A stretch of 64,000 nt of DNA from an uncultured Erysipelotrichaceae bacterium (GTDB lineage Bacteria; Bacillota_I; Bacilli_A; Erysipelotrichales; Erysipelotrichaceae), in assembly GCA_946537255.1 (NCBI GenBank), contig CAMNFS010000001.1, positions 31,713 through 95,712 on the forward strand, read 5' to 3'. Each line of letters begins with the position of its first letter. Position 1 is the stretch's first letter. Below are positions 17,844 to 59,450 of this stretch, in pieces. Below the pieces are notes generated by a model. It saw only the letters and a program-made list of their open reading frames with translations. It made no database searches and was not told the origin of the DNA. The translations under genes and the position numbers were made by a program.

Positions 17844-19163
17844 TCAGCAGCTGTGATTCCCTGGAATGCAGTCTTTGAAAACCACATCATGAATGGAATC
17901 AGGCCAGTCTTTTAGCGGCTCTATTCTGATCACTGCATTGTGATCCGGACAGACACAGTGTTCAAAATGGATGTCCTGGAAAACCGGAATATCCTGGGGG
18001 TCAGCGGTTATTCTGACCGGATCGTTCTGATCCATCTGATTATGGACATAATCCATGGACAGAACAATCGCTTCATTGCGGATGTTTACCATATGAATAT
18101 TCCGCATCGTGATATTTTCCACCGTCCCGCCCCGGCCAATGGCACTTTTGAAGCGGATGCCGACATCGGAATCAATGAAGGTACAGTCCCTTACGAGCAC
18201 ATTTCTGATTCCCCGTGACATTTCTGATCCAACTACAAATCCACCATGGCTCTGCCCGACAGAGCAATGATGAATCAGAACATTCTCGCATGGGCCGGAA
18301 ATGGCTCTGGCTTCTTTGTCCTTTCCGGATTTCAGGCAGATTCCATCATCCCCGGTCTCAAGATCGCAATGATGAATGTGCACCCTGCTGCAGGAATCCA
18401 CATCAATTCCGTCACCGTTCTGTGCCCAGTACGGGTTGTGTATTGAAACATGAGCTGCCGTAAAATCCTCACAGAAATACGGATGCAGGTTCCAGGCCGG
18501 AGAATTCCGCAGATGGACTCCCTGGAGAAGAACCTTCTGACAGTGTCGGAAACTGACCATCACCGGACGGTAGAAATCCCAGTATGGCTTTGCGGCCATC
18601 AGCGCCTGTTCATCCGTATCCGACTTCGGAAGAACTTCCCCTGCATAACGACCCTCAAGAATGGATGCCGAAGGCACCCAGATCCCGCCCTCACTGCTTT
18701 CAATCACAGTATCAGAAGAGAGCTTCAGAAGATGATTCCACTGGCGCTCTGTCAGCTTGAACTGTTTGACTGGCCGCCACATATGACCATTGCCGTCAAT
18801 CGTTCCGTTTCCGGTAACTGCGATATTCTCCGCGTGATGGGCATACAGCATGGAAACCGTCCGGATCCGCCGGATCCCTTCAAAGTCCGTAATCACCAGC
18901 GGATACTCTTCCATGTTTTTGGAAAACAGAATCAGGGAATTGTCTGAAAGATGCAGTTCCACATTGGATCGCAGCTCAATCGGTCCGCTCAGCCAGATGC
19001 CATCCGGCACAATGATTCTTCCGCCGTTTTCACTGGCCGCAGCCACCGCTTTCCGGAACGCCTCCGTATTGGAGACGGTTCCTCCGGAAACCGCTCCGAA
19101 GCTTCTCAGATCAAATTCCCGATCGGGTATGCTGGGAAGCTGCACTTCAAATTCATGAAACAT
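17844..19163 (-). CDS. Glycoside hydrolase family 28 (polygalacturonase-like)
   Basis: It has the GH28 motifs NGDGIDVDSC, TGDDGICLKSG, SHGGFVVGSEMS and IRFKS. Length is 439 aa. SD AAGGAGA is present. Confidence 0.85.
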   Translation of the reverse strand: MFHEFEVQLPSIPDREFDLRSFGAVSGGTVSNTEAFRKAVAAASENGGRIIVPDGIWLSGPIELRSNVELHLSDNSLILFSKNMEEYPLVITDFEGIRRIRTVSMLYAHHAENIAVTGNGTIDGNGHMWRPVKQFKLTERQWNHLLKLSSDTVIESSEGGIWVPSASILEGRYAGEVLPKSDTDEQALMAAKPYWDFYRPVMVSFRHCQKVLLQGVHLRNSPAWNLHPYFCEDFTAAHVSIHNPYWAQNGDGIDVDSCSRVHIHHCDLETGDDGICLKSGKDKEARAISGPCENVLIHHCSVGQSHGGFVVGSEMSRGIRNVLVRDCTFIDSDVGIRFKSAIGRGGTVENITMRNIHMVNIRNEAIVLSMDYVHNQMDQNDPVRITADPQDIPVFQDIHFEHCVCPDHNAVIRIEPLKDWPDSIHDVVFKDCIPGNHSC

Positions 19164-27341: not shown

Positions 27342-27366
27342 AGGCCTCCGCATCGGAGGCCTTTTC
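27342..27366 (+). terminator. Bidirectional terminator between convergent genes
   Basis: AGGCCTCCG-cat-CGGAGGCCT (9-bp stem) is followed by TTTT. Confidence 0.75.
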
Positions 27367-28450
27367 ATTCAATATCGTTCAGGCTGTCAATCACCTTCTT
27401 GAGTTCAAGCGGAACCCGCTTGCTGCCCTGCATGGACCGCACGCCGAATGCCCGGAGTACCTTCATGGTCAACAGCTCCGGCGGATAGATCTTCAGAACT
27501 TTCAGCTTCATGAGTCTGTTCATGTGAATATGCCGGTCGCTGTAGTGATTTGGAATATCTGTTTCCACCACCTCTGTCTTGTAGAGAATTGCCGAATACG
27601 GCGCGGCTGTATAGATATAAACGGTATCTCCGACTGCCGCCCGCACCGACTGTTTCCATTCCGAGATGTGATTCAGCCGGAAGTGCTTCGTCAGATCATA
27701 GTATTTCGGATTGGCCGGAACGATCCATTCGTTGTGGGCCTTGGGTGCGCCGTTTCCATTGACCAATTCACGGCTTTTATTTAAAAGCGCGAAAAGCCTT
27801 CGGTCACTGACGGTATCATCCAGGATGATGCTCACCCAGTTTTTTCGGTTCATATGCCAGCATGGATAGATGCCTGGTTCGCATACCAGTTTTTCAATTT
27901 CTGATTCCGGTTGCTTGAGATTGACGATCTCACACCGGTCCTGCCGCGTTTCATCCAGCTTCCCGCAGTCAATCCGCATGACAAGCGCATACCACTTCTG
28001 ATTGGACGGAGCCCGGTAGGTCACACTGGAAGGATCCTTCTGAAAAGGATGATCATACGGATCCCCGAAGGTTTTCATAAGGTATTCATGCATGCGGCAG
28101 GCCTGATCGCCGACGTAAAGCCGGTCAATGAAGCAGTGATCCTTGATCGAGATCAGAAGATCATAGTATTCCTGACGGATCGTGGAAACAAACGCGCTGG
28201 TCTGGCTTGCGACCCGAAGCGGAAGGTATTCCTCCCCCATTTCCACTTCATGGACAGTGCCGCTGACTTTTCCGCTCTTGTCCACGGAAACAAATGCCTG
28301 AAACTCCCCGTCATGGAAAAAACAGGACCACACATACCGGCCGTTTTCTTCCTGAAAGCCGAAATCCTTCAGGCGCTTAAAATCCGGCAGGCTTCGTTCA
28401 AACACCAGTGTTTCAATATCTCTTGGAATTGCGTCCAGCTGCTCGTTCAT
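27365..28450 (-). CDS. Three-module protein: N-terminal unknown domain + MmcQ/YjbR DNA-binding domain + C-terminal PUA-like (EVE-type) domain
   Basis: The middle region (DHPFQKDPSSVTYRAP..KWYALVM...IYPCWHMNRKNWVSIILDD) fits the YjbR family. The C-terminal region (WIVPANPKYYDL...EWKQSVRAAVGDTVYIYTAAPYSAILYKTEVVE) resembles EVE/PUA-like proteins. That assignment is from memory only. Confidence 0.6.
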   Translation of the reverse strand: MNEQLDAIPRDIETLVFERSLPDFKRLKDFGFQEENGRYVWSCFFHDGEFQAFVSVDKSGKVSGTVHEVEMGEEYLPLRVASQTSAFVSTIRQEYYDLLISIKDHCFIDRLYVGDQACRMHEYLMKTFGDPYDHPFQKDPSSVTYRAPSNQKWYALVMRIDCGKLDETRQDRCEIVNLKQPESEIEKLVCEPGIYPCWHMNRKNWVSIILDDTVSDRRLFALLNKSRELVNGNGAPKAHNEWIVPANPKYYDLTKHFRLNHISEWKQSVRAAVGDTVYIYTAAPYSAILYKTEVVETDIPNHYSDRHIHMNRLMKLKVLKIYPPELLTMKVLRAFGVRSMQGSKRVPLELKKVIDSLNDIE

Positions 28451-28460
28451 AGTATTTCCC

Positions 28461-28982
28461 TCAGTCAAGATACAGTACAACCCGGCCGGCTTCCCTGCTC
28501 TTTTTCAGATCAATCACCCGCTGATTCTCAGAACCCCGGAACTTCAGTGAAATATTCCGCAGCTCCTGACGGAACGGTCCATCAACAAGCACATCAATAT
28601 ATGAAAGCATTTCATCCGTATCTTCGGTATACCGCTTCCCGCCTTTCACAAGATCCCGATCATAGACAAACCCCGTATAGCTCCAGATATCCTTGTCCGG
28701 GAATACCCTGCGGACCTTCCTTAAAAGCTTTACAAGTTCCTTCTGATTGGCCGGTTCAAAGGGCTCGCCGCCCAGCAGTGTGAGTCCCTGAATATACTCC
28801 TTATCCAGGGCTTCAAGAATCTGTTTTTCCGTTTCTTCCGTATATTCCTGTCCGTAATGAAAATCCCATGTCTCGGGCTGAAAACATCCCGGGCAGGCAT
28901 TGGTGCAGCCGCTGACAAACAGGGTGACTCTTACCCCTTCTCCATCAGCGATATCATAAGTTTTCAGTGTGCCGTAATACAT
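28461..28982 (-). CDS. nrdG: Anaerobic ribonucleoside-triphosphate reductase activating protein
   Basis: 173 aa. It has DIADGEGVRVTLFVSGCTNACPGCFQPETW (radical SAM cluster), typical of NrdG. Confidence 0.92.
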   Translation of the reverse strand: MYYGTLKTYDIADGEGVRVTLFVSGCTNACPGCFQPETWDFHYGQEYTEETEKQILEALDKEYIQGLTLLGGEPFEPANQKELVKLLRKVRRVFPDKDIWSYTGFVYDRDLVKGGKRYTEDTDEMLSYIDVLVDGPFRQELRNISLKFRGSENQRVIDLKKSREAGRVVLYLD

Positions 28983-29067
28983 TCGTATCCTCTTTCTCTG
29001 ATCATCCTATCAGAAACGCGCAGGATGCGTATCCAATTCCATGAAAAAAGTGCCGAAGCACCCTCTT

Positions 29068-30483
29068 TCATTCCTTTCCATTCCAGCAATAGGTACAGAC
29101 CTCATCCTCAGTAAGACCGGTTGCCCGGATCATATCATCCAGGCGGTTGAACGCAAGCGAGGAGAAGTTCATCTCTTTCCGCATCAGATCAACCATCTTG
29201 TGATACCGGTCGGAATCCGGATTGGCATAGTCATCGAGAATGACGCGTTCCACATCCTGTCCTTCCTCACGGGCAATGATGCGGCGGGCGATCAGCTCCA
29301 TATCATTGGTGGATCGGGAGAAGTTGATATACTTGCAGCCAAAGAGAATCGGCGGACAGGCCGGGCGTACGTGGACCTCCCGGGCACCGCTTTCATACAG
29401 GAATTCTGTTGTCTCCCGCAGCTGGGTACCACGGACAATGGAATCATCGATCAGCAGCATCCGTTTGTTCTGAATCAGCTCCGCAACCGGAATCAGCTTC
29501 ATTTTCGCGATCAGATCCCGTTTGGACTGCATGGTCGGCATGAACGAACGGGGCCAGGTCGGAGTATATTTGATAAACGGACGGGAATAAGGAATATGGC
29601 TTTCATTTGAATAGCCGATGGCGTGGGCAATACCGCTGTCCGGTACACCCGCCACAATATCAAGATCCTCTGAGGTCAGAGAATCCCTCTGAGCCATGAA
29701 TTTTCCGCAGTCATACCGCATCTTTTCAACTGTTGTACCTTCATACCGGCTGGGCGGATAGCCATAATAGGTCCAAAGAAAGGTACAGATTTTCTTCTTG
29801 CTTCCAGGCTTGGAAAGAACCGTGCAGGAATCCGGCGTGATAATGACAATCTCTCCGGGGCCGAGTTCTTTATATGCACTGTAGCCGAGCTTCTCATACG
29901 CAAAGGATTCAAAGCTTGCGCAGTATCCCTCCGGCTTGACGCCGATATGAATCGGGGTTCTTCCAAGCGCGTCCCTAGCGCAGTAGATTCCCTTTTCACT
30001 CAGCATCATGATGGACATCGAACCATCAATCATCTTCTGGGCGAAACGGATTCCTTCAATGATGTTGTCCTTTTGATTGATCAAAGCGGCGACCATTTCT
30101 GTTTTGTTGATTTCGCCGCCGGACATTTCAAGAAAGTGACTGTTGGCATTGCTGAAGATTTCATCCACGATCTGATCCGTATTGTTGATCTTTCCAATGG
30201 TCACAATTGCGTAGGTACCATGATGCGAACGGACCAGCAGCGGCTGAGGATCATAGTCGGAAATACAGCCGATGCCCATATTCCCCTTCATCTCAACCAC
30301 ATCGTAAGTGAATTTGGTGCGGAACGGTGCGTTTTCGATATTATGAATCGCGCGATTGAAACCGTCTTCCCCAAACACGGCCATGCCGGCACGGCGTGTA
30401 CCGAGATGAGAATGATAGTCTGTTCCGTAAAACAGATCGAACATGCAGTCTTCCTTCAAAGCAGCCGCAAAGAATCCACCCAT
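29068..30483 (-). CDS. Amidophosphoribosyltransferase (PurF) paralog lacking the N-terminal Cys nucleophile
   Basis: The PRTase motif LLIDDSIVRGTQ is present, as are candidate Fe-S ligand positions (CTFLW.., PPILFGCKY, CTYCWNG). The N-terminus is MGGFF, where PurF has M-C-G. A strong SD AAGGAGA lies 7 nt before the ATG. Confidence 0.85.
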   Translation of the reverse strand: MGGFFAAALKEDCMFDLFYGTDYHSHLGTRRAGMAVFGEDGFNRAIHNIENAPFRTKFTYDVVEMKGNMGIGCISDYDPQPLLVRSHHGTYAIVTIGKINNTDQIVDEIFSNANSHFLEMSGGEINKTEMVAALINQKDNIIEGIRFAQKMIDGSMSIMMLSEKGIYCARDALGRTPIHIGVKPEGYCASFESFAYEKLGYSAYKELGPGEIVIITPDSCTVLSKPGSKKKICTFLWTYYGYPPSRYEGTTVEKMRYDCGKFMAQRDSLTSEDLDIVAGVPDSGIAHAIGYSNESHIPYSRPFIKYTPTWPRSFMPTMQSKRDLIAKMKLIPVAELIQNKRMLLIDDSIVRGTQLRETTEFLYESGAREVHVRPACPPILFGCKYINFSRSTNDMELIARRIIAREEGQDVERVILDDYANPDSDRYHKMVDLMRKEMNFSSLAFNRLDDMIRATGLTEDEVCTYCWNGKE

Positions 30484-30509
30484 ATATCGTCTCCTTCTTA
30501 ACGGGGGAG

Positions 30510-30520
30510 ATTATACCACA
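30510..30520 (-). promoter_or_regulatory. Extended -10 promoter element upstream of the purF-like gene
   Basis: The minus strand reads TGgTATAAT about 27 nt upstream of the ATG. No clear -35 lies at standard spacing. Confidence 0.4.
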
Positions 30521-30716
30521 AAAAAAGAGAACCACAGATGTCAACCTGTAAAGGGTTCTGGATTTTATGAATCCGATCACTGTTTCTGCCTGCTTTCTAC
30601 CCTGGCATTCATACCTGCATTCTGATCTTCCGTCTTTTCTGAAAGCGTGATAAGAAACGACAGAACCCAGTTCTGTCAGAGCACGGTTATTGTCATTTAT
30701 CTGTGGTTTCAGCCGT

Positions 30717-31577
30717 TCAGCGCTCTTTTCCATAGAAGAACAGGCCAAGCATGCCCGGCCCCACATGCGCACCGGAAAACGGCTCATGCGGACAGACAAC
30801 AATTTCCGCATCCGGTGTTATTTCAAGAATCATTGCCTTCAGATGTTCCGCATCTTCCAGGCAGTCCCCATGAGAAATAAAAACCCGATGATATTCCGAC
30901 AGATGTTTCTCTTTGTATTTTTCCGCAAGCATGTGAACTGCCTTTTTCCGTCCATGGCAGTTTGCGCAGGAAACAATATGACCGTCAAAGTCCCCGTAAA
31001 GGATCGGTTTGATATTGAGAGCCGTGCCGACCAAAGCCGCTGTCCCGCTGAGGCGTCCGGTTCTTCTGAGAAAATTCAGATCATCAACCGTAAAATACTG
31101 GCAGCAGTACGGCACAAGCGCATCCAGTATTCTGGACGCTTCGCGGCAGGATTCCCCGTTTCTGCTCAGTTCAGCTGCTTTCAGCGCAAGCATCCCGCTG
31201 CCGAATCCGCATCCATGTGAGTCAACAATATGAACCAGGCGGTCCGGATACTCCTCCATCAAAGAAGCAGCCGCGGTCTGTGCGGCGCTGAAGGTGCCGC
31301 TGATGAGAGAACTCATCGCGATATAGACGATATCTGTACCTTCCTTCACAACCGGTTCAAAATGAGACAGAAACAGGCCCGTGTTCAGAAGACTGGTCTT
31401 TACCTCGGTTCCCTTCCTCAGCTTTTCATAATATTCATGGGGATCGAAATGATCGATGTCGCCATAATAAACACAGGGTTTCCCATCCACTGTATACTCA
31501 CTCGGAAGCAGTCTGATCCCATCCAGAAGACTTCCGGGAAGATTCGCTGTGCCATCCGCAAATACCGCAAAACTCAT
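30717..31577 (-). CDS. DegV family fatty-acid-binding protein
   Basis: 286 aa. The sequence is DegV-like throughout (VFADGTANLP...KTSLLNTG...YIAMSSLISGTF...). Confidence 0.9.
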   Translation of the reverse strand: MSFAVFADGTANLPGSLLDGIRLLPSEYTVDGKPCVYYGDIDHFDPHEYYEKLRKGTEVKTSLLNTGLFLSHFEPVVKEGTDIVYIAMSSLISGTFSAAQTAAASLMEEYPDRLVHIVDSHGCGFGSGMLALKAAELSRNGESCREASRILDALVPYCCQYFTVDDLNFLRRTGRLSGTAALVGTALNIKPILYGDFDGHIVSCANCHGRKKAVHMLAEKYKEKHLSEYHRVFISHGDCLEDAEHLKAMILEITPDAEIVVCPHEPFSGAHVGPGMLGLFFYGKER

Positions 31578-31665
31578 CCTTACACTCCTTCAATCTCATT
31601 CATCATTCAACGAAAAACCAGATTGATCTGTGCATCTTCAGATCCAACCGAGGTTCTTTTCTTCT

Positions 31666-32034
31666 TCACTTTTCCTCCAGGCGTACCATGATGACTTCCC
31701 CATCATGAATCCCGGAATTCCCAAAAGTAGTATTGTAATTGAGCTCCGTGATTCCATCTTCATGAAACAGCAGAATCCGGTACCAGCGTGCCTCGGCCTG
31801 TTCCGCAATCGCATTGCGGCAGTCCTCGATTCTGTATCCCGGCGCCGCGCTCACAACCGATTTCCTTTTATTCAGAAGGTTCAGATAGACCAGTCTGAAA
31901 CAGATCCGATCCGGCTGATTCAGGATATCCGCAGGAATCTCAGCATTCCCGTCATCAATGATTTCAATCCATTTTTCACTCATGTTCCAGCCCAGGACAT
32001 GCCTGTCCTCCTTGTTTTTCATCATATCACGCAT
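31666..32034 (-). CDS. Hypothetical protein (start uncertain)
   Basis: The ORF is 122 aa with plausible composition and no family I recognise. The only strong SD (AAGGAGGA) lies inside the ORF, so the true start is unclear. Confidence 0.45.
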   Translation of the reverse strand: MRDMMKNKEDRHVLGWNMSEKWIEIIDDGNAEIPADILNQPDRICFRLVYLNLLNKRKSVVSAAPGYRIEDCRNAIAEQAEARWYRILLFHEDGITELNYNTTFGNSGIHDGEVIMVRLEEK

Positions 32035-32179
32035 GAGCTGGCATAAACGAAAACTTCAAAACTAAAAAACAGTCCATGGGAAAAGCAGTGGTTATAACGT
32101 ATATAAAACGAATGGAAAAACAGGTTATTCAGGTTGTATCTCTTGAACCTGCAGAGCCGAATACAAAGGAGAAAGGAAC

Positions 32180-32458
32180 ATGAAAGATCGGAAGAATACA
32201 GTACTGCTTGAGGATGATCAGCTCGACGTTGTCTTTGGAGGTGTTTCTCCAGCCAGTTTTGAACTGCTGGCCCTGCAGGCGGCGGGCCTTGAGATAAAAG
32301 GATCGGTTTTCCGCAATAAAGGCGTGGTCCTGGCTTCCAGCGGTGAAAGCCTCTCAGCGGAAGAAGCGGATGCGGCAAGACAGTATTTCCTGAAGAAAGG
32401 TCATCCCGCGGCCAGCCGGAAGGATCTGCAGTTCTTTCAGACATCCGCATCTGAGTAA
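32180..32458 (+). CDS. Small secreted-peptide precursor with double-glycine (class II bacteriocin-type) leader
   Basis: The leader MKDRKNTVLLEDDQLDVVFGG|VSPASF... fits the LSxxELxxIxGG consensus, with hydrophobic residues at -4, -7 and -12. SD AAGGAGAAAGG lies 4 nt upstream. The predicted core is 71 aa. Confidence 0.6.
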   Translation: MKDRKNTVLLEDDQLDVVFGGVSPASFELLALQAAGLEIKGSVFRNKGVVLASSGESLSAEEADAARQYFLKKGHPAASRKDLQFFQTSASE

Positions 32459-32576
32459 CTGATTCATTGCCCTGTATCAATAACAAATCGCTTGTACCCT
32501 TTTACTGCCGGAAGAATTTTTTTCCGGAAATAAGAAAGACCCTCAGAGACTGAGAGTCTTTCAGAGTTCGAGCTCA

Positions 32577-34778
32577 TTACAGATGAAGCACACGCTCCTT
32601 GATTTCCTGCGTGCGTCCCTGATTCCAGAACTGGGTTCCGATATACCCACAGGTCCTTCTGGCAACATTCATCGTATTCTGATCGGTGTTGCCGCAGTTC
32701 GGGCACTTCCAGATCAGCTTGTGATTTTCATCTTCCTTGATTTCTATTTCGCCGTCATATCCGCATTTCTGACAATAGTCGCTCTTGGTGTTGAGCTCTG
32801 CATACATGATCGTATTGTAGATATGCTTCATGACCGCAAGAACTGCCGGAATGTTGTTCTGCATGTTCGGGACTTCCACATACGAGATGGCTCCGCCCGG
32901 GGAAAGCTTCTGGAACGCGCTTTCCTGAGTCAGTTTGTCAAAGGCATTGATTTCCTCTGCCACATGAATGTGATAGCTGTTGGTAATATAGTTCCTGTCT
33001 GTGACATGCGGAATGACTCCGAAGCGCTCCTGCAGGCACTTGGCAAACTTGTAGGTCGTGCTTTCCATCGGGGTTCCATAGACTGAAAAGTCAATATTGC
33101 TTTCCTTTTTCCACTTCAAGCATGCGTCATTCATATGCTGCATGACGGCAAGACCGAACTTTCTTCCCTCTTCACTGGTATGCGATTTGCCAGTCATGTA
33201 ATAGACGCATTCGGACAGTCCGCCATAGCCAAGGCTGATGGTGGAATATCCATCATAAAGAAGCTTGTCAATGACCTCGCCTTTTTCCAGTCTTGCCAGC
33301 GCTCCATACTGCCAGAGAATCGGCGCGACGTCACTCGGTGTACCCTTGAGCCGATTATGGCGGATCATCAGTGCTCTGTGGCAGAGTTCAAGACGCTCAT
33401 CAAAAATCTTCCAGAAACTCTCCATATCCTTTTTCGAGGAACAGGCAATGTCCACAAGGTTCAGGGTGACAACCCCCTGATTGAAGCGGCCATAATAGCG
33501 ATGTACTCCCTCATGGTAATCCTTTGCCTTGGCAATATTGGCTACGCCGGCATCGGTAAAGCGGTCCGGTGTCAGGAAGGAACGGCAGCCCATGCAAGGA
33601 TAGACATCTCCCTTGAGTTCCTTCATCATCTTTGCGGAAATATAGTCCGGTACCATCCGCTTCGCGGTGCATTCCGCAGCGAGTTTCGTCAGATAATAGT
33701 ATTTGCTGTCTTCATGGATATTGTCTTCATCCAGGGCATAGATCAGCTTCGGGAACGCCGGCGTGATATAAACGCCCTTTTCATTTTTGACGCCGAGAAT
33801 CCGCTGCTTCAGCATCTCCTCAATGATGATGGCAAGGTCATCTCTGACCTGGCCTTCCTCCACTTCGTCCAGATACATGAACACGGTCACAAACGGAGCC
33901 TGACCATTGGTAGTCATCAGGGTAATAATCTGATACTGCATGGTCTGTACACCGGTCTTGATTTCCTTGCGGACCCGTTCTTCCGCGATCATATTGATCC
34001 GGTCATTATCCACTTCAATCCCTGCGGCGGCAAGTTCCTCCGCTACTGCCTGACGGTGCTTTTTCCGGGAGACTTCGACAAACGGCGCAAGATGAGCCAG
34101 CGTAATGGTCTGGCCGCCATACTGGTTGGAAGCGACCTGGGCAATAATCTGCGTCGCGATATTGCATGCGGTGGCAAAGCTGTGCGGCTTTTCAATCGCG
34201 GTCTCACTGATCACCGTTCCGTTCTGCAGCATGTCCTCAAGATTGACCAGGCAGCAGTTATGCATCGGCTGAGCAAAATAATCGGCATCATGAAAATGAA
34301 TGATTCCTTTCTCATGGGCATCGATAATATCCGGCGGAAGCAGGAAGCGTCTGGTGATATCCTTGGAGACCTCTCCTGCCATATAGTCCCGCTGGGTGCT
34401 GTTGACAGTCGGATTCTTATTGGAGTTTTCCTGCTTGGCCTCTTCGTTATAACGGCCGATCAGGGAAAGAATCTGTTTGTCAGTAGTATTTGCCTTGCGT
34501 ACCAGAGCTCTTTCATACCGGTAGGTAATATAGTTATGGGCGAGCTGGAAGGCTTTTTCAGCCATAACCTCGGTTTCAACCATATCCTGAATCTCTTCGA
34601 CCGCAAGACTTCTCTTCAGTTTCTCACAGGCTTCCACAACCCGGTCCGTGATCAGACGGATCTGTTCTTCGGAAATCTGGCTGGTTTCTACGGTAGCGGC
34701 ATTTGCCTTGCGCACGGCATTTTCAATCTTGGAGGCGTCAAATGTGACTTCTTCTCCGCTGCGCTTGATTACGTTCAT
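32577..34778 (-). CDS. nrdD: Anaerobic ribonucleoside-triphosphate reductase (class III), with N-terminal ATP-cone
   Basis: 733 aa. It has an ATP-cone (MNVIKRSGEEVTFDASKIENAV), a C-terminal Zn ribbon (CQKCGYDGE...CPNCG) and the glycyl radical motif RRTCGYIG. Confidence 0.97.
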   Translation of the reverse strand: MNVIKRSGEEVTFDASKIENAVRKANAATVETSQISEEQIRLITDRVVEACEKLKRSLAVEEIQDMVETEVMAEKAFQLAHNYITYRYERALVRKANTTDKQILSLIGRYNEEAKQENSNKNPTVNSTQRDYMAGEVSKDITRRFLLPPDIIDAHEKGIIHFHDADYFAQPMHNCCLVNLEDMLQNGTVISETAIEKPHSFATACNIATQIIAQVASNQYGGQTITLAHLAPFVEVSRKKHRQAVAEELAAAGIEVDNDRINMIAEERVRKEIKTGVQTMQYQIITLMTTNGQAPFVTVFMYLDEVEEGQVRDDLAIIIEEMLKQRILGVKNEKGVYITPAFPKLIYALDEDNIHEDSKYYYLTKLAAECTAKRMVPDYISAKMMKELKGDVYPCMGCRSFLTPDRFTDAGVANIAKAKDYHEGVHRYYGRFNQGVVTLNLVDIACSSKKDMESFWKIFDERLELCHRALMIRHNRLKGTPSDVAPILWQYGALARLEKGEVIDKLLYDGYSTISLGYGGLSECVYYMTGKSHTSEEGRKFGLAVMQHMNDACLKWKKESNIDFSVYGTPMESTTYKFAKCLQERFGVIPHVTDRNYITNSYHIHVAEEINAFDKLTQESAFQKLSPGGAISYVEVPNMQNNIPAVLAVMKHIYNTIMYAELNTKSDYCQKCGYDGEIEIKEDENHKLIWKCPNCGNTDQNTMNVARRTCGYIGTQFWNQGRTQEIKERVLHL

Positions 34779-34804
34779 AGTGTTCTCCCCTTTTTATTCA
34801 AATA

Positions 34805-34826
34805 AATAGTTGCATTTCCAACTATT
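34805..34826. promoter_or_regulatory. Palindrome between nrdD promoter and SD (candidate operator)
   Basis: AATAGTTG-N6-CAACTATT has 8-bp perfect arms. It lies 17 nt downstream of the -10 hexamer. Confidence 0.35.
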
Positions 34827-34842
34827 CTCGTTCAGCAAGATG

Positions 34843-34871
34843 ATTATAGGCAACCCCACCATCGTTTGCAA
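34843..34871 (-). promoter_or_regulatory. Sigma-A type promoter for nrdD
   Basis: The minus strand reads TTGCAA, a 17-nt spacer, then TATAAT. Confidence 0.6.
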
Positions 34872-35070
34872 GCGAAATAACCTGTCTTCCGCAATTCTTT
34901 TTTCATTAAAGATGCTCCGATTGAAAAACTGTTCATGAAGAGAATTCGGACAGGGATCCTATACCCTTTTATAGATCCCGAAAATCATGATATTCATGAC
35001 TTCTGAGCGATACCTTTGGAGCGAGTGAAAAAATGAAAGCGAATGGCTGTTTCCGGTATCATTCCGCATA

Positions 35071-35097
35071 TGAAAACCGGAAGAAATCCTTCCGGTC
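35071..35097 (-). terminator. Terminator after the 255-aa membrane protein gene
   Basis: The minus strand reads ACCGGAAG-gattt-CTTCCGGT followed by TTT. Confidence 0.6.
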
Positions 35098-35130
35098 AGA
35101 CGGTATTCAATGGATCAGATCTTTCTTTTT

Positions 35131-35898
35131 TCAGTAATAATAAGTCGCCACATATTCCACCCCCTCTTCGGGAACAAGGGAGAAGGAAAGTTCGAAATCA
35201 TTATCTCTTGGGTAAGGTGTGACGGGATCAAAATGAAACGGGTTATCATAATACCGGTCAATCGCCTCATTCAGCTCCTTCTCGGAGTAATACAGATGGC
35301 GGCCGTCATGATACAGTTCAAAATGCAGAAATATCTTATCCCGTTCCGGATCACACTGGCCTGTCTGCACATACTCCCGGTCAAAATCCGCAAGCAGGAT
35401 CGACTCCCGCACATGGAGCGCATCACTGTAATCCACCGAATAGTTGTCGATATAGTTCTGATAATACGTCACGGAAGTGATATGTACATCTCCATAGGCA
35501 TCCAGGACATCCTGCCAAGTGGAGCCTTCGCCGATACCGCGGTTGGTGATCATGCCGTTACCGTCCCATGAATGCATGGGCTTCAGATGCATGGAGCGGA
35601 CCTTCTGGGCCGGCTGGCCGGTTGTTTTGTCCACAAGAATATAATCCTCCGGGGCCAGGTATCCTTCCATGGTACGGTTTTCAAGGAACAGCGTGTTTTC
35701 GTTGCGGAAGGATACACCCGCAAGCATGGAAATCATACAGGCTGTCACCCCTCCGAGAATCATAAGAAACTTTTTCAGTCCCACATCCGCAGAGGCTGCC
35801 ACTTTCTGGCTCTGCTGGCTGAACTGCTTCTTTTTTTCTTCCCAGTCCTGTGAAAACGGATTCTTCTGTTCCGGTTTTTTCTGACTCTGTACAGGCAT
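35131..35898 (-). CDS. Hypothetical membrane-anchored protein
   Basis: 255 aa. It has a charged N-terminus, one TM helix (FLMILGGVTACMISMLAGV) and a roughly 190-aa extracytoplasmic domain rich in Y/D. I recognise no family. Confidence 0.55.
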   Translation of the reverse strand: MPVQSQKKPEQKNPFSQDWEEKKKQFSQQSQKVAASADVGLKKFLMILGGVTACMISMLAGVSFRNENTLFLENRTMEGYLAPEDYILVDKTTGQPAQKVRSMHLKPMHSWDGNGMITNRGIGEGSTWQDVLDAYGDVHITSVTYYQNYIDNYSVDYSDALHVRESILLADFDREYVQTGQCDPERDKIFLHFELYHDGRHLYYSEKELNEAIDRYYDNPFHFDPVTPYPRDNDFELSFSLVPEEGVEYVATYYY

Positions 35899-35965
35899 AA
35901 AAATACTTTAGCAAAGGAAACAGAAGCGGGCAACTCTTTCTCTTTCTGAGGGAATCAAACAGCCG

Positions 35966-36006
35966 CAAAAAAAAGCATCTTCCTTCATGATTTCAGGAAA
36001 ATGCTT
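35966..36006 (-). terminator. Rho-independent terminator after fucO
   Basis: The minus strand has AGCATTTTCCT...AGGAAGATGCT, an 11-bp stem with one mismatch, followed by T8. Confidence 0.75.
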
Positions 36007-36015
36007 TGAATGAAT

Positions 36016-37164
36016 TTACATCAGGCTGAGGTAGAGTTCCTTGATGATTTCAGGAGATACCGGTCTCGGATTGCCCGGTGTGCAGGCATCCTTGAAGGCA
36101 TCGGCGGAAAGCTGATCCACATCCTCCATCGGGACAACTCCCTTGAGGGACATGACAATTCCAACGTCCTCACCAAGCTTCTTCACAGCCGCGACAGCTG
36201 CAGCTCTTGCCTCTTCAATCGGCATGGTGTAAGCACCTTCGACATCAAACGCTGCCGCGATATCACGGTACTTCTCACCGGTTACCGGCGCGTTGAATGC
36301 CATGACGGTCGGAAGCAGAGTCGCGCAGGCCTTGCCATGCGGCATGTTGTAGTACGCGCTGAGCGTATGCGCCATGGAATGGTCCACGCCAAGGCCGACA
36401 TTGGAGAATCCCATACCGGCAATATACTGGGCCAGAGCCATCGCTTCACGTCCTGCCGGCTCATTGGCAACAGCCGAACGGAGATTCTTGGCAATCAGCT
36501 GGATCGCCTTGATATGGAACATATCAGAAAGCTCCCAGGCACCGGCTGTGATATAGCCTTCAATTGCGTGTGTCAGAGCATCCATACCGGTCGCGGCAGT
36601 CAGGCCCTTCGGCATGGAACTCATCATCTCCGGATCAACAAATGCGATCACCGGAATATCATGGGGATCAACGCAGACAAACTTCCGCTTGTTCTGAACA
36701 TCCGTAATGACATAGTTGATGGTAACTTCCGCAGCGGTTCCGGCTGTGGTCGGAACGGCAAGAATGGGAACACTCGGATGCTTGGTCGGCGCAACGCCTT
36801 CCAGACTTCTGACATCCGCGAATTCCGGATTGGCAATGATAATGCCGATTGCCTTGGAAGTATCCATGGAAGATCCGCCGCCGATCGCGACAATCGCATC
36901 CGCGCCGCTTGCCTTGAATTCTTCCACACCTGCCTGAACATTCTCAATTGTCGGATTCGGCTGAATGTTGGAATAGAGTGTGAAAGGAATATCCGCATCC
37001 TTGAGAAGATCCGTTACCTTTGCCGTGACACCGAAGTTCACAAGATCCGGGTCACTCGCGACAAAGACTTTCCTAAATCCACGGTTCTTAATCTCCGGTA
37101 CGATTTCTCTGATCGCGCCGGCACCATGATAGGATGTCTCATTCAATACAAACCGATTTGCCAT
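36016..37164 (-). CDS. fucO: Lactaldehyde reductase / L-1,2-propanediol oxidoreductase (iron-containing ADH)
   Basis: 382 aa. It is collinear with E. coli FucO as I recall it (MANRFVLNETSYHGAGA..., NPEFADVRSLEG, VPILAVPTTAGTAAEVTINYVITD, KFVCVDPHDIP, DALTHAIEGYIT). Confidence 0.88.
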   Translation of the reverse strand: MANRFVLNETSYHGAGAIREIVPEIKNRGFRKVFVASDPDLVNFGVTAKVTDLLKDADIPFTLYSNIQPNPTIENVQAGVEEFKASGADAIVAIGGGSSMDTSKAIGIIIANPEFADVRSLEGVAPTKHPSVPILAVPTTAGTAAEVTINYVITDVQNKRKFVCVDPHDIPVIAFVDPEMMSSMPKGLTAATGMDALTHAIEGYITAGAWELSDMFHIKAIQLIAKNLRSAVANEPAGREAMALAQYIAGMGFSNVGLGVDHSMAHTLSAYYNMPHGKACATLLPTVMAFNAPVTGEKYRDIAAAFDVEGAYTMPIEEARAAAVAAVKKLGEDVGIVMSLKGVVPMEDVDQLSADAFKDACTPGNPRPVSPEIIKELYLSLM

Positions 37165-37200
37165 TTTTATCCTCCTTCTTTCTTTATGAAACAGCAGTTA

Positions 37201-38277
37201 TCAGTCTCCGAAGCTGACGCCCATCAGCTTCGCTTCTTTGATAATCCGGGCATTGGGATCGACGGTCTTCAGCTTACCGGCAACTTCGGAAAGAGGCACC
37301 TTAACCATTTCACGGTTCTTGTATCCGACCATGAAGCCGTATTCTCCCTTGAGAATCAGACTTGCGGCTTCCGCTCCAAGACGGCTTGCGAACACCCGGT
37401 CATAGGCAACCGGCGCTCCGCCTCTCTGCACATGGCCAGGAACCGTAACACGTACTTCTCTTCCGGTCTCTCTGAAGATCTGATCCGCGAGTTCATAGGT
37501 GACAGACGGGAATTTGCTGTTGGCAAGCTTCTTCTTGTATTCCTTCTTGGAAAGCTTTGCATCCTCTTTGGAAATCGCACCTTCCGCTACGGCAATAATC
37601 GTGAAGCGGTGGCCTTCCCGGTCTCTTTTCTCAATGACATCCACAACCTTCTTGATGTCATACGGAATTTCCGGAAGAAGAATGATATCCGCACCGCCGG
37701 CAAGACCCGCGTTCAGCGGCAGCCATCCGACCTTGTGGCCCATGACTTCTACGATAAATACACGTCCATGGCTTGATGCGGTGGTATGAATCTCGTCAAT
37801 CGCGCGGGTCGCGATGTCAACTGCGGACTGAAAACCGAAGGTCATGTCCGTTCCCCAGAGATCGTTGTCAATGGTCTTCGGGAGCGTAACCACATTGAGG
37901 CCTTCTTCGCTCAGAAGATTCGCGGTTTTATGGCTTCCGTTTCCGCCGAGCATGACAAGGCAGTTCAGCTGAAGTTTATAATAGGTCTGCTTCATGGCCG
38001 CAACCTTGTCGAGCCCTTTTTCATCCGGCTCCCGGATTGTCTTGAACGGGCACCTGCTGGTTCCCAGTATCGTTCCGCCTACTGTGAGAATATTCGAGAA
38101 ATCCGCTTCGGTAAGGATACGGAATTTCCCATAGATCAGGCCTTTATACCCGTCTTCGAATCCATAGAACTCCACTGGTTCCTTTGAATTCTTTGTGACC
38201 GTTTTAAAAACACCGCGCATTGCCGCATTCAGTGCCTGGCAGTCACCGCCGCTCGTAAGCATTCCAATTCTAAGCAT
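37201..38277 (-). CDS. pfkA: ATP-dependent 6-phosphofructokinase
   Basis: It has MLTSGGDCQALNAA, GGNGSH (Gly at the ATP/PPi discriminator position) and TIDND. Length is 358 aa. Confidence 0.9.
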   Translation of the reverse strand: MLRIGMLTSGGDCQALNAAMRGVFKTVTKNSKEPVEFYGFEDGYKGLIYGKFRILTEADFSNILTVGGTILGTSRCPFKTIREPDEKGLDKVAAMKQTYYKLQLNCLVMLGGNGSHKTANLLSEEGLNVVTLPKTIDNDLWGTDMTFGFQSAVDIATRAIDEIHTTASSHGRVFIVEVMGHKVGWLPLNAGLAGGADIILLPEIPYDIKKVVDVIEKRDREGHRFTIIAVAEGAISKEDAKLSKKEYKKKLANSKFPSVTYELADQIFRETGREVRVTVPGHVQRGGAPVAYDRVFASRLGAEAASLILKGEYGFMVGYKNREMVKVPLSEVAGKLKTVDPNARIIKEAKLMGVSFGD

Positions 38278-43144: not shown

Positions 43145-46100
43145 TTACCCTTCCTGATCGGACCTGTTTCTCTCTGCAAGAGAGGCAATGGTAGCATACA
43201 GTTTATCCGGCTCAACCGGTTTGGAAAGATGGGCGTTCATACCCGCCTCCAGGGATCTTTCCACATCCTCATCAAACACGTTGGCGGTCATGGCAATAAT
43301 CGGAATGGTCTTTGCGTCAGGCCGTTCCAGAGCCCGGATTGCCCTGGTAGCAGAAAGACCGTCCATCACCGGCATCCTGACATCCATGAGAATGACGTTA
43401 TAATAACCGGCCGGCTTTTTGGAAAACATCTGTACGGCAATCTGTCCGTTCTCCGCGTGTTCCGTTTCAATATCTTCAAGCGAAAGCAGATCTTCCAGAA
43501 TTTCCGCGTTCTGTTCGACATCCTCTGCCATCAGCACTCTGAGTCCGGCAAGATCCGTTCCGCTTTCCTTTGTATCCGCGGTGTCGGTCTCGATGATTCC
43601 CTTCTTCTTCTGCAGGACATGCTGAATCTCCCGCATCAGGGTATCAGTAAACAGCGGCTTCGCCAGAATACCGTCAACCCCTTCCATTTTCGCTTCGTTC
43701 TCAATGACATTCCAGCTGTATCCCGTCAGCATGATCACAGCCGGATCATTCCCGGCGCAGGCGCGGATGGCTCTTGTCACATCCAGTCCATCCTTTTCCG
43801 GCATCCTGTAATCGGTGAGGATCAGCTGATATGGATGATCCGTATCCGCGGCGGCCTTGATCCTTTCAACTGCCCGATTCGGATTCTGTTCGGTATCCGC
43901 TTCAATGCCAAGGCTCTTCAGCACGACCTGAGCGTGCTCTCGCGCAATCTCATCATCATCGATGACAATCGCCCGAAGATTCTCCGGCAGTACGATACCG
44001 TTTTCTGCCTGGTAGGTACGGTCACTTTCCTTGAGGGCAACCGTCACAGTGAAGGTCGTTCCGACTCCTTTTTCACTTTCTACGGAAATAGTCCCGTTCA
44101 TCATTTCCACAAAGTTCTTTGTGATCGCCATGCCAAGACCGCTTCCTCCATACTTGTTGGTAGAAGTCGCGTCCTCCTGGGAAAAGGCCTCGAAAATCTT
44201 CGGAATAAATTCCTTGTCCATGCCGATTCCTGTATCCGCCATCCGAAACCGCATGGTTCCCAATCCATCCTGACTGCTGATCTGCTCCACGGTAAGCGTG
44301 ACCAGTCCCGGTGCCTCGGTGAATTTGACGGAGTTGCCCAGGATATTGATCAGCACCTGCTTCAGCTTCATGTCATCTCCGCAGTAGTAGTCACAGACAT
44401 GGCCGATGATATTGCATTCATAGTGCAGTCCCTTATCCTGACACTGCCCGTTGATCATGATATTGATCTGATCCAGAAACTCCCGGAAGGAGAATTCCTC
44501 ATTCTTCAGAACCATCCGTCCGGATTCAATCCGGCTCATATCCAGAATGTCATTGATCAAGCCAAGCAGATGCTTCGCGCTGGCTCCGATCTTTTCCAGA
44601 TGTTCCCTTGTGCGCGGCGACAGATCCGGATCTCTCAGGGCTATGTTGTCCAGGCCGATGATCGCGTTCATCGGGGTTCTGATCTCATGGCTCATATTGG
44701 AAAGAAAGCTGGTCTTGGCCCGGCTGCTCTCTTCCGCCAGAGCCTTTTCAATCTCGGTCTGCTTTTCCCGCTTCTGCATCTGATTGTAGATATCAAACAG
44801 CAGTGCCAGAGCTATGACAACCAGGGCGGTCTGAATCAGTACACTGATCCCCAGCGTACGATTGATTTCACTCAGAACATCCCGGAGATACATGACCGCA
44901 GGTCTTGTCGCGGTACTTGTCACATCAATTCCTGCCGCTTCCAGCTGGCCGGTATAGTATTCCTGAATCGGGGTTACAGAACTTTCCACAGCCGACTCCG
45001 CCGTCTGACGCATCCAGACACTGGAGGTAAAGATAATCAGGCCAAGCAGAACCACCCAGGCAACAATCGAATGCCCAAGCCGCCTCTGCTTGTCGTTATG
45101 CATGATATGGCGGAACAGGAAAAGTCCGAGAATTCCCCACGCCGCAAGAATCAGATAGGATTCCGTGGAAAGCGTTTTGACGGAAATGATATTCGGAACC
45201 AGAAATTCCAGAGCGAAAAGAATCGAGAAAAACTGGCCGGCAAATCCGCAGACAGAGGCGGTGCTGTTCTTTTCCTTTCTGGCAAGACGATAGGTGCAGG
45301 CACTGGCAAACGCGTACGCAATCGTCGCTCCGACCGTGGTGACATCTACAATCCAGCTGATCGCGGTGCGTCCGAAAAAAGGAAGAATCACAGAAATGCC
45401 GAGAATCAGAAAGATTGCCTTGCGGGGAACAAAATGCTCATCCAGTTCACCGATCCACTCCGGCAGCATCCCATCCATGGACAGTGTCGCAAGCAGCCGG
45501 CTCAGGGCAATGTAATTGCCGATAAGACCGGTGAAAATCGCGCAGAGCGCAATCACTCCAAGCAGGATCGGGCCAGCGCTTCCCATAGCGGTCTGTACCG
45601 CGTAGAAGGTCGGAACAGATGCTGTACCGCTGTACTGATCCAGATGAAAGATATAATCCATCCACGATCCGCAGCCCTCCGGGAAAGCGGTCGCCGCCAG
45701 TAGAGAAAGCAGAATATAGGCAATCGCCCCGGTGATTACCGCGGCAGAAAGAATTCCGAATGATTTCTTCAGGGGAAAAGCCGCTTCACTGGAAGAATGC
45801 GAAATGGATTCAAATCCGACAAAGGCCCAGGGAGCCAGGGCAAAAACCGTAAAGATCCCTTCCCCGGCGGAATGTCCCGGTACAAAGGCCGGCTGAAATC
45901 CATTGACAGCACCGGGATTTCCAAGCGCGCCGACAAAGCAGACAATGATGCCGAAGAAAAGAAAAACCGCCATGATCACCTGAATCCGTTCAGAGATCTT
46001 TCGGTGAAGGCAGAACAGCGCAGAAACAACCAGGGAAACAACAGCCAGCAGGATTTCTCCCATGTATACATGAAAACCGGCAATCACATAATGAAAGCCA

Positions 46101-46492
46101 AACTGAAAGACATTGCCGAGCACCGCCCTGGCTATGAGCGGAAGCGCTGTTGCATTCGCCCAGATAATCGCGATATATGTCAGAGTCAGAAACCACGCAA
46201 TCAGGAATCCATGGTCATATCCGAACACATTCTTGGTATAGGTATAGGTTCCTCCCCCGTCCTGAAAGCGGTTCATCAGGAAATGAAAATTGACCGCCAG
46301 CACCAGCATGACCAGTGCTCCCAGAGTAATTCCGATCAGCGTTCCGATCGGCCCGGCAACCGGCAGGAAGGTCGTTCCGGGCATCACAAAAGATCCCCAT
46401 CCGACACTGCACCCAAAGGCAAGCGCCCATGCGCCCGGTACAGTTAAATAGGCAAACTCCCGACGAAGTCCCGGCCCGTTATTCTGACTCAT
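43145..46492 (-). CDS. Hybrid sensor histidine kinase with N-terminal APC-superfamily amino-acid-permease domain and two receiver domains
   Basis: About 470 N-terminal aa have APC hallmarks (GSFVMPG...[38 protein letters not shown]) and at least 12 TM helices. The kinase core has the H-box [19 protein letters not shown] and GGSGLGM. There are two REC domains ([11 protein letters not shown]; [11 protein letters not shown]). SD GGGGAGAAAG lies before ATG 46492. Confidence 0.9.
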
Positions 46493-46526
46493 AAGAAAAC
46501 TTTCTCCCCTGACATGCCTTCCGTAC

Positions 46527-46895
46527 TTATGCTCCTTCGTACTGACGGATTCCATCCACTGCTTTCTGATACAGTTTCTCTATTTCCGCAAGCTTCTCAC
46601 GGACCATTTCATCACTCATGGAGCGGGCATTGCCAGGCCGGTATTCCTCAGCAATTTCCGAAGCCGCATCGGCGATTTTCACAAGACCCAGATTGGCACA
46701 GACTCCCTTCGCTGCATGAGCGGTTTCAAACAGCTGTGTGGGATCCATGGTTTTTCCCGCTTCCAGAAGAGAGGCAACCACCCCGTTTTTCACAAGTTTG
46801 CGGATATGCTTGTCAATCAGTTTTTCCACCATGAGCACATGGATGGCCCGTTCATAATCGCCGTCGATCAGCTGATACAGTTCCTGAAGTGTCAT
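46527..46895 (-). CDS. Stand-alone Hpt (histidine phosphotransfer) protein
   Basis: 122 aa, helical, with the Hpt motif [13 protein letters not shown]. Its ATG overlaps the upstream stop codon (ATGA). Confidence 0.85.
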
Positions 46896-48598: not shown

Positions 48599-48620
48599 AA
48601 TCCTTCTGTTCCTTTCCAGA

Positions 48621-50108
48621 TCACGATGGCTGAAGCCACTTTCGAATCGTCGCATACAGGAGTTCAGCGTCCGCCGGCTTGCCCAGATGTTCATTCATGC
48701 CGGCTTCCTTTGTCTGTTTTTTATCACTTTCAAAGGAATTGGCAGTCAGGGCAATAATCGGCACAGTTTTCGCATCAGGCCGGTCCAGTGCCCGGATCCT
48801 GCGGGTTGCCTCAAGGCCGTCCATAACCGGCATGCGAAGATCCATCAGAATCACATCGTAGTAGCCAACGGAAGAATTCCGGAACATCTCAACCGCAATC
48901 TGTCCGTTTTCCGCGTGTTCGCTCTCAGCGTCTTCCAGTTCCAGAAGATCCGCTACGATTTCCGCGTTTTCTTTTACATCCTCTGCAATCAGAATCCGGC
49001 GTCCGGCAAGGCTCACTTCCATCACAGGCTCCGGTATCCGCTCTATTTTAATTCTTTTTACAGGAACTGTCACAGCGAACTCGGTACCCTCATTTTTCCT
49101 GCTGGAAACTTCAATGGTACCTCCCATCCGCTCCACCATGTTTTTGGAAACGGCAAGGCTCAGACCACTGCCTCCATAGCGATCCGTCGCGCTGTCATCC
49201 TCACGGGCAAAAGGATCATAGATATGGGGAAGAAACTCAGGATCAATTCCGATTCCATTGTCACTGATGACAAATTTCAGCACTGCCTGATCATCCGTGC
49301 AGCTGTCACATGAAGCGGTAAAGCGAACCATTCCGCCAGGTGGTGTATATTTCACCGCGTTATCAAGAATGGATAAGAGCACCTGCTTCAGCTGAATCTC
49401 ATCCCCGAGGTATTCTCCTTCCGCATCCGGTTCCAGTCTGCTTTCATAATGGACCCCTTTTTCCTCACTGACTGTATTCGTGATGACATTGACCTGATCC
49501 ACTGCATCCTTCAGCTGAAAGGACTCGCTTCGACCCGACGGTTCCTCGGCATTGAGCTCGTTCATTTTCAGAATATTATCGATAAGTCCGACCATGTGTC
49601 TGGCACTGTGGCCGATCTTTTCCAGGGCCTCCTGTGTTTCCGGAGGGTTTTCCGGGTTTTTAAGAGCCAGACCGTCAAGCCCCAGAATCACATTCATCGG
49701 GGTCCGCATTTCATGACTCATGGTCGCAAGAAACCGTTCCTTGGTTTTCCGCGACTGTTCCGAAGCCATCAGTTCCGCCTCCAGACGCTCATTTTCCATG
49801 ATGTGCTTGGTCACTTCGTCGAGCATCCGGTACATGACAAAAACAAAGATGCTTCCGCCGAAGAGAATCCCGGCAACGATGAGATCAGGATGTCCGAACA
49901 GCCCGACCAAGATATAACCGATGAGAAAAAGAATCAGAAGAATAATCGGCAGACGCAGGATCCGCTCCATTTTCTGCTGTTCTTTATTTTTCTGAACCAC
50001 CTTTGAAAAACGCATGAATCCCCAGATGTTGTAAACCATCAGAACCGAACCGGCAAATATCATTGCCATAACAAGAACTTTCAAAGGATTGTCCTCCTTT
50101 TCGATCAT
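48621..50108 (-). CDS. Hybrid sensor histidine kinase (3-TM membrane sensor, HisKA-HATPase-REC)
   Basis: It has three N-terminal TM helices with minimal loops, the H-box SHEMRTPMNVILG, DNGIGI, GGSGLSL, and a C-terminal REC (LMDLRMPVMDG). Confidence 0.9.
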   Translation of the reverse strand: MIEKEDNPLKVLVMAMIFAGSVLMVYNIWGFMRFSKVVQKNKEQQKMERILRLPIILLILFLIGYILVGLFGHPDLIVAGILFGGSIFVFVMYRMLDEVTKHIMENERLEAELMASEQSRKTKERFLATMSHEMRTPMNVILGLDGLALKNPENPPETQEALEKIGHSARHMVGLIDNILKMNELNAEEPSGRSESFQLKDAVDQVNVITNTVSEEKGVHYESRLEPDAEGEYLGDEIQLKQVLLSILDNAVKYTPPGGMVRFTASCDSCTDDQAVLKFVISDNGIGIDPEFLPHIYDPFAREDDSATDRYGGSGLSLAVSKNMVERMGGTIEVSSRKNEGTEFAVTVPVKRIKIERIPEPVMEVSLAGRRILIAEDVKENAEIVADLLELEDAESEHAENGQIAVEMFRNSSVGYYDVILMDLRMPVMDGLEATRRIRALDRPDAKTVPIIALTANSFESDKKQTKEAGMNEHLGKPADAELLYATIRKWLQPS

Positions 50109-59373: not shown

Positions 59374-59450
59374 GATTTGTCTCCTTTTGGTATGATTTGT
59401 ATAACGAATCATACCATATTCGCAAAATAAAAGAGAAAACCGTTTCAGGA

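Follow-up and report, generated by a model that had tools for sequence, protein, structure and literature searches.

Double-glycine leaders end in Gly-Gly or, uncommonly, with Gly-Ala or Gly-Ser. The PCAT1 substrate CtA of Clostridium (Acetivibrio) thermocellum is made up of a 24-residue leader and a 66-residue cargo, and the leader consensus given in the same study is L(-12)xxxE(-8)L(-7)xxxxG(-2)G(-1), with the residue at position -4 giving specificity (PMC6959990). Elsewhere the consensus is written as I/L/V(-12), E(-8), L(-7) and V(-4) followed by GG (PMC12184118). As applied here, the consensus also admits M at -7 and I at -4. The pneumococcal peptide BriC leaves the cell through ComAB, whose genes lie at another place (PMC7595303).

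We analysed a 92-codon gene, referred to here as orf92, in a stretch of 64,000 nucleotides (the window) from an uncultured Erysipelotrichaceae bacterium. The orf92 protein begins with MKDRKNTVLLEDDQLDVVFGG, after which it continues with VSPASF. At 21 residues the presumed leader fits the double-glycine format, i.e. a leader of about 15-30 residues that ends in Gly-Gly, and the residues at the consensus positions are L(-12), Q(-8), L(-7), V(-4), G(-2) and G(-1); the sequence-only reading of this DNA had pointed to hydrophobic residues at -12, -7 and -4 ahead of the GG, and these are present as L, L and V. Our analysis nevertheless suggests that orf92 is probably an intracellular, lineage-specific small protein that carries the GG motif by chance. 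The features of the locus are collected in Table 1.

Table 1. Coordinates of orf92 and of the features around it in the window
Feature	Position	Strand	Description
nrdG	28461..28982	-	NrdD activase; TIGR02491
GATase/PRTase-like 471-aa protein	29068..30483	-	family search
DegV	30717..31577	-	family search
122-aa ORFan	31666..32034	-	divergent neighbour of orf92; codon score 0.33; AF2 pLDDT 44
Divergent intergenic region	32035..32179	.	145 bp, common to orf92 and the 122-aa ORFan; weak promoter-like elements only
Shine-Dalgarno AAAGGAG	32165..32171	+	8 nt 5' of the orf92 ATG; from sequence
orf92	32180..32458	+	ORFan protein-coding gene; 92 aa, 9.9 kDa, pI 5.4; ORF list
Leader-like N-terminal 21 codons, MKDRKNTVLLEDDQLDVVFGG	32180..32242	+	GG at residues 20-21 (32237-32242)
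Eroded remnant of the orf92 intrinsic terminator, window strain	32508..32527	+	allele alignment
nrdD intrinsic terminator	32534..32562	-	convergent with orf92; folds at -19 kcal/mol; terminator scan
nrdD	32577..34778	-	class III anaerobic ribonucleotide reductase; PF13597, ATP-cone and Gly_radical domains; NF006732, 942 bits

A species-restricted gene in a variable interval

orf92 is an ORFan restricted to one uncultured rumen Erysipelotrichaceae species. The exact protein is found on 19 contigs, all of them from sheep or cattle rumen metagenomes, and one variant with 98% identity differs by R4Q and A31S and keeps the GG. A word-indexed search of 5.8 billion proteins returned only a 98% twin, and a metagenome scan returned one identical copy and nothing else; no match was found among the GTDB species representatives, nothing in plasmids and phages (tblastn), nothing meaningful in PHROGs or PADLOC, and no detectable similarity to any chain among the PDB sequences. 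By tblastn, 80 related nrdD loci, including those of the closest Erysipelotrichaceae, contain no homolog of orf92, of the 122-aa ORFan or of a 255-aa gene on the far side of nrdD. The gene had been described as an orphan, and the description is borne out: only copies with 98-100% identity are known. An AF2 model of orf92 (pLDDT 44) is uninformative and has no confident fold. The NrdD protein of the same locus is at most 83% identical to that of any species representative, its best matches being those of rumen Erysipelotrichaceae MAGs (Galactobacillus sp., RUG12927, RUG12781 and Solobacterium sp.), followed by Catenisphaera and Absicoccus.

The convergent neighbour of orf92 is nrdD, 118 nt away. 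nrdG lies 3.2 kb from orf92 on the other side, and the 122-aa ORFan, DegV and the GATase/PRTase-like protein stand between the two. The placement of orf92 between nrdD and nrdG in the sequence-only reading thus holds loosely: orf92 is part of a 3.6-kb block that parts nrdD from nrdG (28461-34778), but nrdG is 3.2 kb off and the interval contains four genes. The same reading took orf92 to be the sole plus-strand gene in a run of minus-strand genes, and we find this to be so, the run extending from about 27365 to 38277. In the related genera represented by loci L013, L014 and L021, nrdG directly follows nrdD; in Catenisphaera and Absicoccus (L016 and L017) the two genes are parted by different, unrelated inserts, for example by a hybrid-cluster-protein-like gene in L016. 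The nrdD-nrdG interval is evolutionarily variable.

The 122-aa protein has no match in Pfam, NCBIfam, PHROGs or PADLOC, and in the search of 5.8 billion proteins it matched only itself. Together with the 255-aa gene (35131-35898, minus strand) it flanks the nrdD/orf92 pair; both are ORFans with gene-like codon usage, and neither has a Pfam, PHROG or PADLOC match or a tblastn match in the closest genera. Because both flanking genes are ORFans as well, nrdD lies within a small island of species-specific genes.

Two further observations concern more distant parts of the window. A 1136-aa protein (43145-46555, minus strand) joins an APC-type amino-acid permease domain (PF13520/PF00324, residues ~40-454) to HisKA, HATPase_c and two receiver domains, an architecture that makes it a hybrid histidine kinase with a transporter-like sensor; next come a REC-GGDEF-EAL protein (46892-48694) and another hybrid kinase (48621-50108). 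A 73-aa MazE/AbrB-type antitoxin-like gene (~59153-59374, minus strand; from L093 7113-7334) overlaps the start of a UDP-glycosyltransferase gene (57989-59155), and no obvious toxin partner was noted for it.

The leader-like N-terminus and the search for an exporter

A loose pattern for the leader motif ([LIVMF]x4[LIVMF]x2[LIVMF]xGG, with its end at residue 12-32) is found in 2 of 912 non-overlapping ORFs and in 3 of 2394 ORFs when all ATG-ORFs are counted, across about 1 Mb of Firmicute loci; this is a frequency of 0.1-0.2%, and about 0.1 chance matches are expected per 64-kb window. The window contains another protein that satisfies the same loose expression: a 439-aa protein (17844-19163, minus strand) begins with MFHEFEVQLPSIPDREFDLRSFGAVSGG, then TVSNTEAF, and has F(-12), F(-7) and V(-4) ahead of its GG. 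What comes after the GG resembles the conserved N-terminus of pectate-lyase-fold (GH28-like) enzymes; the 439-aa protein is a second, local instance of a chance motif match.

We scored positions -15 to -1 against two leader profiles: one was built from 14 classical leaders, and a second, independent one used 13 GG peptides of pneumococcus whose sequences are printed in the PMC7595303 supplement, which confirmed the two leaders common to both sets. orf92 scores 4.3 bits on the classical profile and 2.9 bits on the pneumococcal profile, and with either profile it ranks 2nd of 3,089 background N-termini; the resemblance is therefore real. Authentic leaders, however, score higher: 26 of them reach 5-37 bits when left out or cross-scored, and 11.5-23 bits when cross-scored between sets, with MAM of Faecalibacterium, a Clostridia species, at 23 bits and E. 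coli CvaC at 15.8 bits. orf92 does not have the overall profile similarity of these leaders, and its deficit is explained by Gln at -8 and by hydrophobic residues (L-13, V-5 and F-3) where true leaders are polar. Four hydrophobic residues occupy the normally polar positions -14, -13, -5 and -3 in orf92, as against 0-3 in the 26 authentic leaders, and the residue pattern of the amphipathic two-turn helix (-10 to -4, polar residues off-face) that docks on C39 domains is not present.

The N-terminus had been called a good match to the PCAT-type leader; with 2.9-4.3 bits as against 5-37 bits, Gln(-8) and hydrophobic off-face residues, this is not supported. Nor did the HMM search for GG-leader models that had been proposed as a check bring up anything above threshold: its only match was NF038167 (CTB-family bacteriocin, leader part), below the cutoff, at 12.6-14 bits for a cutoff of 32 bits (E 0.04-0.12), and Pfam and the remaining NCBIfam models gave no match at E<=10. 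The leader resemblance of orf92 is a borderline match, and coincidence is a likelier source of it than a secretion signal.

The predicted 71-aa core is Cys-free, has a pI of 6.8, a net charge of about 0 and a GRAVY of -0.14, and contains no TM segment, in agreement with the earlier description of this part as hydrophilic, Cys-free and not bacteriocin-like. Class II bacteriocins are characterized by mature peptides that are cationic, hydrophobic or amphiphilic and by an immunity gene next to them, and the core does not fit this description; the neighbours of orf92 are nrdD and the soluble 122-aa ORFan. We detected no Sec, Tat, lipoprotein or TM signal in orf92. Searches for a transporter were likewise negative: six-frame scans of the 64-kb window revealed no ABC signature, Walker A or C39 motif; a Pfam scan of the large ORFs of the window returned housekeeping and signalling proteins and no PCAT domains; and neither PF03412 nor an ABC exporter is found among the called genes ~10 kb past the right end of the window and ~7 kb past its left end. 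No PCAT is encoded within about 40 kb on either side of orf92, and no paralogous GG peptides occur in the window. The earlier statement that the window holds no C39 exporter, immunity gene or modification gene is supported, none of these lying near orf92.

Other secreted or modified classes were considered from the sequence and set aside. A type IV pilin leader is unlikely, since no hydrophobic stretch follows the Gly (the maximum 19-residue hydropathy is 1.36) and position +5 is not Glu. The lack of Trp in orf92 speaks against a WXG100 protein, and no T7SS genes were found among the window genes that were scanned. A Cys-based RiPP precursor is improbable in the absence of any Cys, and nrdG is plainly the NrdD activase.

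The reading that we prefer is that of an intracellular protein. orf92 would be a monocistronic small-protein gene of one uncultured rumen Erysipelotrichaceae species; it would be transcribed divergently from the adjoining 122-aa ORFan and translated from its strong Shine-Dalgarno sequence, and in many strains its transcript would end at its own terminator, a hairpin with a U tract. The product would be a 9.9-kDa, mildly acidic, soluble protein that most likely stays cytoplasmic. Judged by its residue pattern, the segment TVLLE-DDQ-LDVVF-GG may better be read as a hydrophobic beta-hairpin with a Gly-Gly turn, within a small alpha/beta fold, than as an amphipathic cleavable leader; on the hairpin reading the PCAT-leader resemblance would be a chance match at a few consensus positions. 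Beyond the residue pattern, the hairpin draws on the low-confidence AF2 model (pLDDT 44) and on a similarity to FG-GAP-like repeats that is non-significant. Several points speak against an intracellular protein: the combination of L(-12), L(-7), V(-4), GG, a length of 21 residues and a charged MKDRKN start beats all but one of 3,088 N-termini; authentic non-bacteriocin cargos of like size exist (CtA and MAM); and some GG peptides are encoded apart from their PCAT, as is BriC, which leaves through ComAB.

The same points lend some weight to export, an explanation that we regard as unlikely. If orf92 were a true double-glycine precursor, a PCAT encoded elsewhere would bind L(-12), L(-7) and V(-4), cut after Gly21 and export the 71-aa cargo, which would be neutral and probably unstructured, and a signal, an envelope protein or an effector rather than a pore-forming bacteriocin. 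The consensus positions, the 21-residue leader and the charged N-terminus are consistent with export, as are the rank of 2 in 3,089 against the leader profiles, the weak match to the leader part of NF038167 (E 0.04-0.12), and a size and cargo character like those of CtA (24 + 66 residues, unstructured; PMC6959990). orf92 has no Sec signal and would hence need a dedicated route; BriC-type GG peptides leave via PCATs encoded elsewhere (PMC7595303); and a strain- or species-specific, fast-evolving small gene suits a secreted peptide. However, the profile score of orf92 is 6-20 bits under those of nearly all authentic leaders, phylogenetically distant ones included, Gln stands at -8, and four hydrophobic residues (-14, -13, -5 and -3) disrupt the amphipathic pattern. 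Moreover, the ~40 kb to each side of orf92 contain no PCAT, immunity, accessory or regulator gene; the window encodes no paralogous GG peptides, no homologs exist that would show conservation of the site, and the neutral, hydrophilic core is unlike a bacteriocin. It is because of the borderline score, the spoiled amphipathicity, the lack of a partner gene within ~40 kb and the un-bacteriocin-like cargo that we give export a low probability.

Coding, translation and transcription signals of orf92

orf92 is very probably a genuine gene, as indicated by its codon usage, its Shine-Dalgarno sequence and a terminator that is intact in some strains. The 92-aa frame at its coordinates, the strong Shine-Dalgarno sequence (AAAGGAG) and the start MKDRKNTVLLEDDQLDVVFGG followed by VS, all described in the sequence-only reading, were verified. 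The ATG is the first start codon past an in-frame stop, and the N-terminus is therefore well defined. The codon-usage score of 0.358 bits/codon is at the 30th percentile for 92-codon windows taken from true genes in the window, and 98.7% of off-frame windows score lower; shuffled versions of orf92 that stay open score -0.33 +/- 0.13, and 0 of 2000 attain the observed value (z ~ +5.5). Of the two other frames at this place, the antisense 154-aa ORF that overlaps orf92 is non-coding by its codon score of -0.20, and an upstream 35-aa ORF (32076..32183, plus strand) is probably spurious (codon score 0.08, no Shine-Dalgarno sequence). Gene callers predict this 35-aa ORF in all metagenome records, and its TGA overlaps the orf92 ATG (ATGA).

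A strict consensus scan of the region upstream of orf92 found no consensus sigma-70 promoter; a relaxed scan finds -10-like elements on both strands, TATAAA at 32102-32107 (plus) and TATAAC at 32096-32091 (minus). The 145-bp intergenic region is the same in all strain copies save for a 3-nt variant at 32061-32063. An Rfam scan of 27-37 kb returned nothing.

Downstream, the strains differ. The intact orf92 terminator of other strains, CTGCCGGAAG-AATTC-CTTCCGGCAG-TTTTTT, stands 45 nt past the stop codon and folds at -21.2 kcal/mol (z -6.0), followed by U6; this canonical plus-strand terminator is intact in 5 of 11 strain copies (named alleles L003, L004, L005 and L009), whereas the allele of the window strain is partly deleted, lacks a U tract and has a folding energy of -12.2 kcal/mol. 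In strains with an eroded plus-strand terminator, such as that of the window, transcripts of orf92 could read through, antisense, into the 3' end of nrdD. The 70-bp spacer between the convergent stops of orf92 and nrdD (32506-32572) is hypervariable among copies that are otherwise 99-100% identical: clustered substitutions and indels distinguish at least 5 alleles, and through this variation the hairpin of the orf92 terminator is gained or lost; in L003 the loop and stem of the nrdD terminator are rewritten as well.

These signals also bear on the possibility that orf92 is weakly or not at all transcribed or translated, a young, possibly de novo or decaying frame that has no selected function and whose identity among strains is due solely to very recent divergence. 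Only 2 synonymous and 2 nonsynonymous SNPs are found among 12 strain copies, so that selection on orf92 is not measurable, and because all copies are at least 98% identical, purifying selection cannot be demonstrated. The lack of a consensus sigma-70 promoter, the erosion of the terminator in the window strain, the lack of a homolog in the collections searched and the lack of a confident AF2 fold would all be consistent with a frame devoid of function. On the other hand, codon usage is typical of expressed genes and lies 5.5 SD over that of shuffled open frames, the Shine-Dalgarno sequence is strong and well spaced, several strains maintain an intact, dedicated terminator, and without orf92 a gap of 540 bp would stand empty in a compact genome. 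We consider a frame without function to be quite improbable.

Least credible, and close to dismissed, is the idea that an FG-GAP/integrin-alpha-type beta-propeller repeat has left a degenerate remnant at residues 15-56, with VVFGG as the "FG" strand-turn: an exhaustive HMMER search of 1.84 billion representatives did return three actinobacterial-looking FG-GAP-type repeat proteins of 595-734 aa (E 4e-8 to 1e-5), each of which matches orf92 residues 14-56 four to six times, but no single repeat scores higher than 13.6 bits (independent E 7e3 for the library), summing over 4-6 near-identical repeats produces the whole-protein E-values, the matching proteins number three only, the Ca-binding DxNGDG motif is missing, Pfam gives no match, and the one copy in orf92 is a lone blade, which cannot build a propeller. 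As evidence of homology we rejected these matches, which are non-significant per repeat and owe their E-values to the summing of copies. In the three proteins (P0002-P0004) values of 1e-5 to 4e-8 arise purely from adding 4-6 copies of one weak match of 8-13 bits, a case which illustrates that per-domain scores need checking when matches are repeat proteins.

Significance and comparison with known systems

If orf92 is intracellular, as we favour, it is an ordinary lineage-specific small gene, and its value lies mainly in the caution it offers. Four or five double-glycine consensus positions recur by chance about once per 500-1000 ORFs, which is why calls based only on the motif, with neither a transporter nor conserved homologs behind them, cannot be relied on; chance matches are well told apart when full profiles of authentic leaders are used for scoring. 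Were export true, orf92 would represent a new PCAT cargo, an orphan and not a bacteriocin, from a rumen lineage that has been little studied, a secreted signal or effector with no relatives, and leader specificity would be broader than the consensus: C39 domains would tolerate Gln(-8) and a far more hydrophobic leader.

Among the described systems, CtA resembles orf92 in being a precursor of ~90 aa with a hydrophilic, unstructured, non-bacteriocin cargo (21 + 71 residues in orf92) and in its recognition via L(-12), L(-7), position -4 and GG, to which L(-12), L(-7), V(-4) and GG of orf92 correspond. The two differ in that CtA is encoded with its PCAT and has Glu(-8), whereas orf92 has no transporter within ~40 kb; the leader of orf92 also scores far under authentic ones, and orf92 has no similarity to a PDB chain. 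MAM of Faecalibacterium (PMC12184118) shares with orf92 a 21-residue leader that ends in GG, a non-bacteriocin cargo and a gut anaerobe of the Firmicutes as its host. However, on the pneumococcal profile the leader of MAM reaches 23 bits as compared to 2.9 bits for orf92, a PCAT gene adjoins the MAM gene in most Faecalibacterium species and does not adjoin orf92, and MAM has many homologs with a conserved leader whereas orf92 has none.

BriC, like orf92, is a small stand-alone gene, and its 21-residue leader, MTGTNTFTVLSTEDLEQTSGG, has an orf92-like layout (TVL..., an acidic run, L(-7) and GG); yet BriC reaches 21 bits on the profile built without it, and orf92 is borderline. For the pneumococcal GG peptides in general, the PCATs in the genome are known, and the mature peptides, at ~40 aa, are shorter than the orf92 core. 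Class II bacteriocins of the pediocin, lactococcin and sakacin types have the N-terminal double-glycine leader format in common with orf92, but their mature peptides are cationic, hydrophobic or amphiphilic, are usually 25-60 aa in length and are accompanied by adjacent immunity and transporter genes; the core of orf92, by contrast, is neutral (pI 6.8), hydrophilic and 71 aa long, with no such neighbours. Lineage-restricted ORFan small proteins are a description rather than a functional family, and orf92 has a leader-like motif besides; with these proteins it shares its occurrence in one species only, the lack of a domain match and of a confident fold, its position in a variable block, and the company of 122-aa and 255-aa neighbours that are ORFans too.
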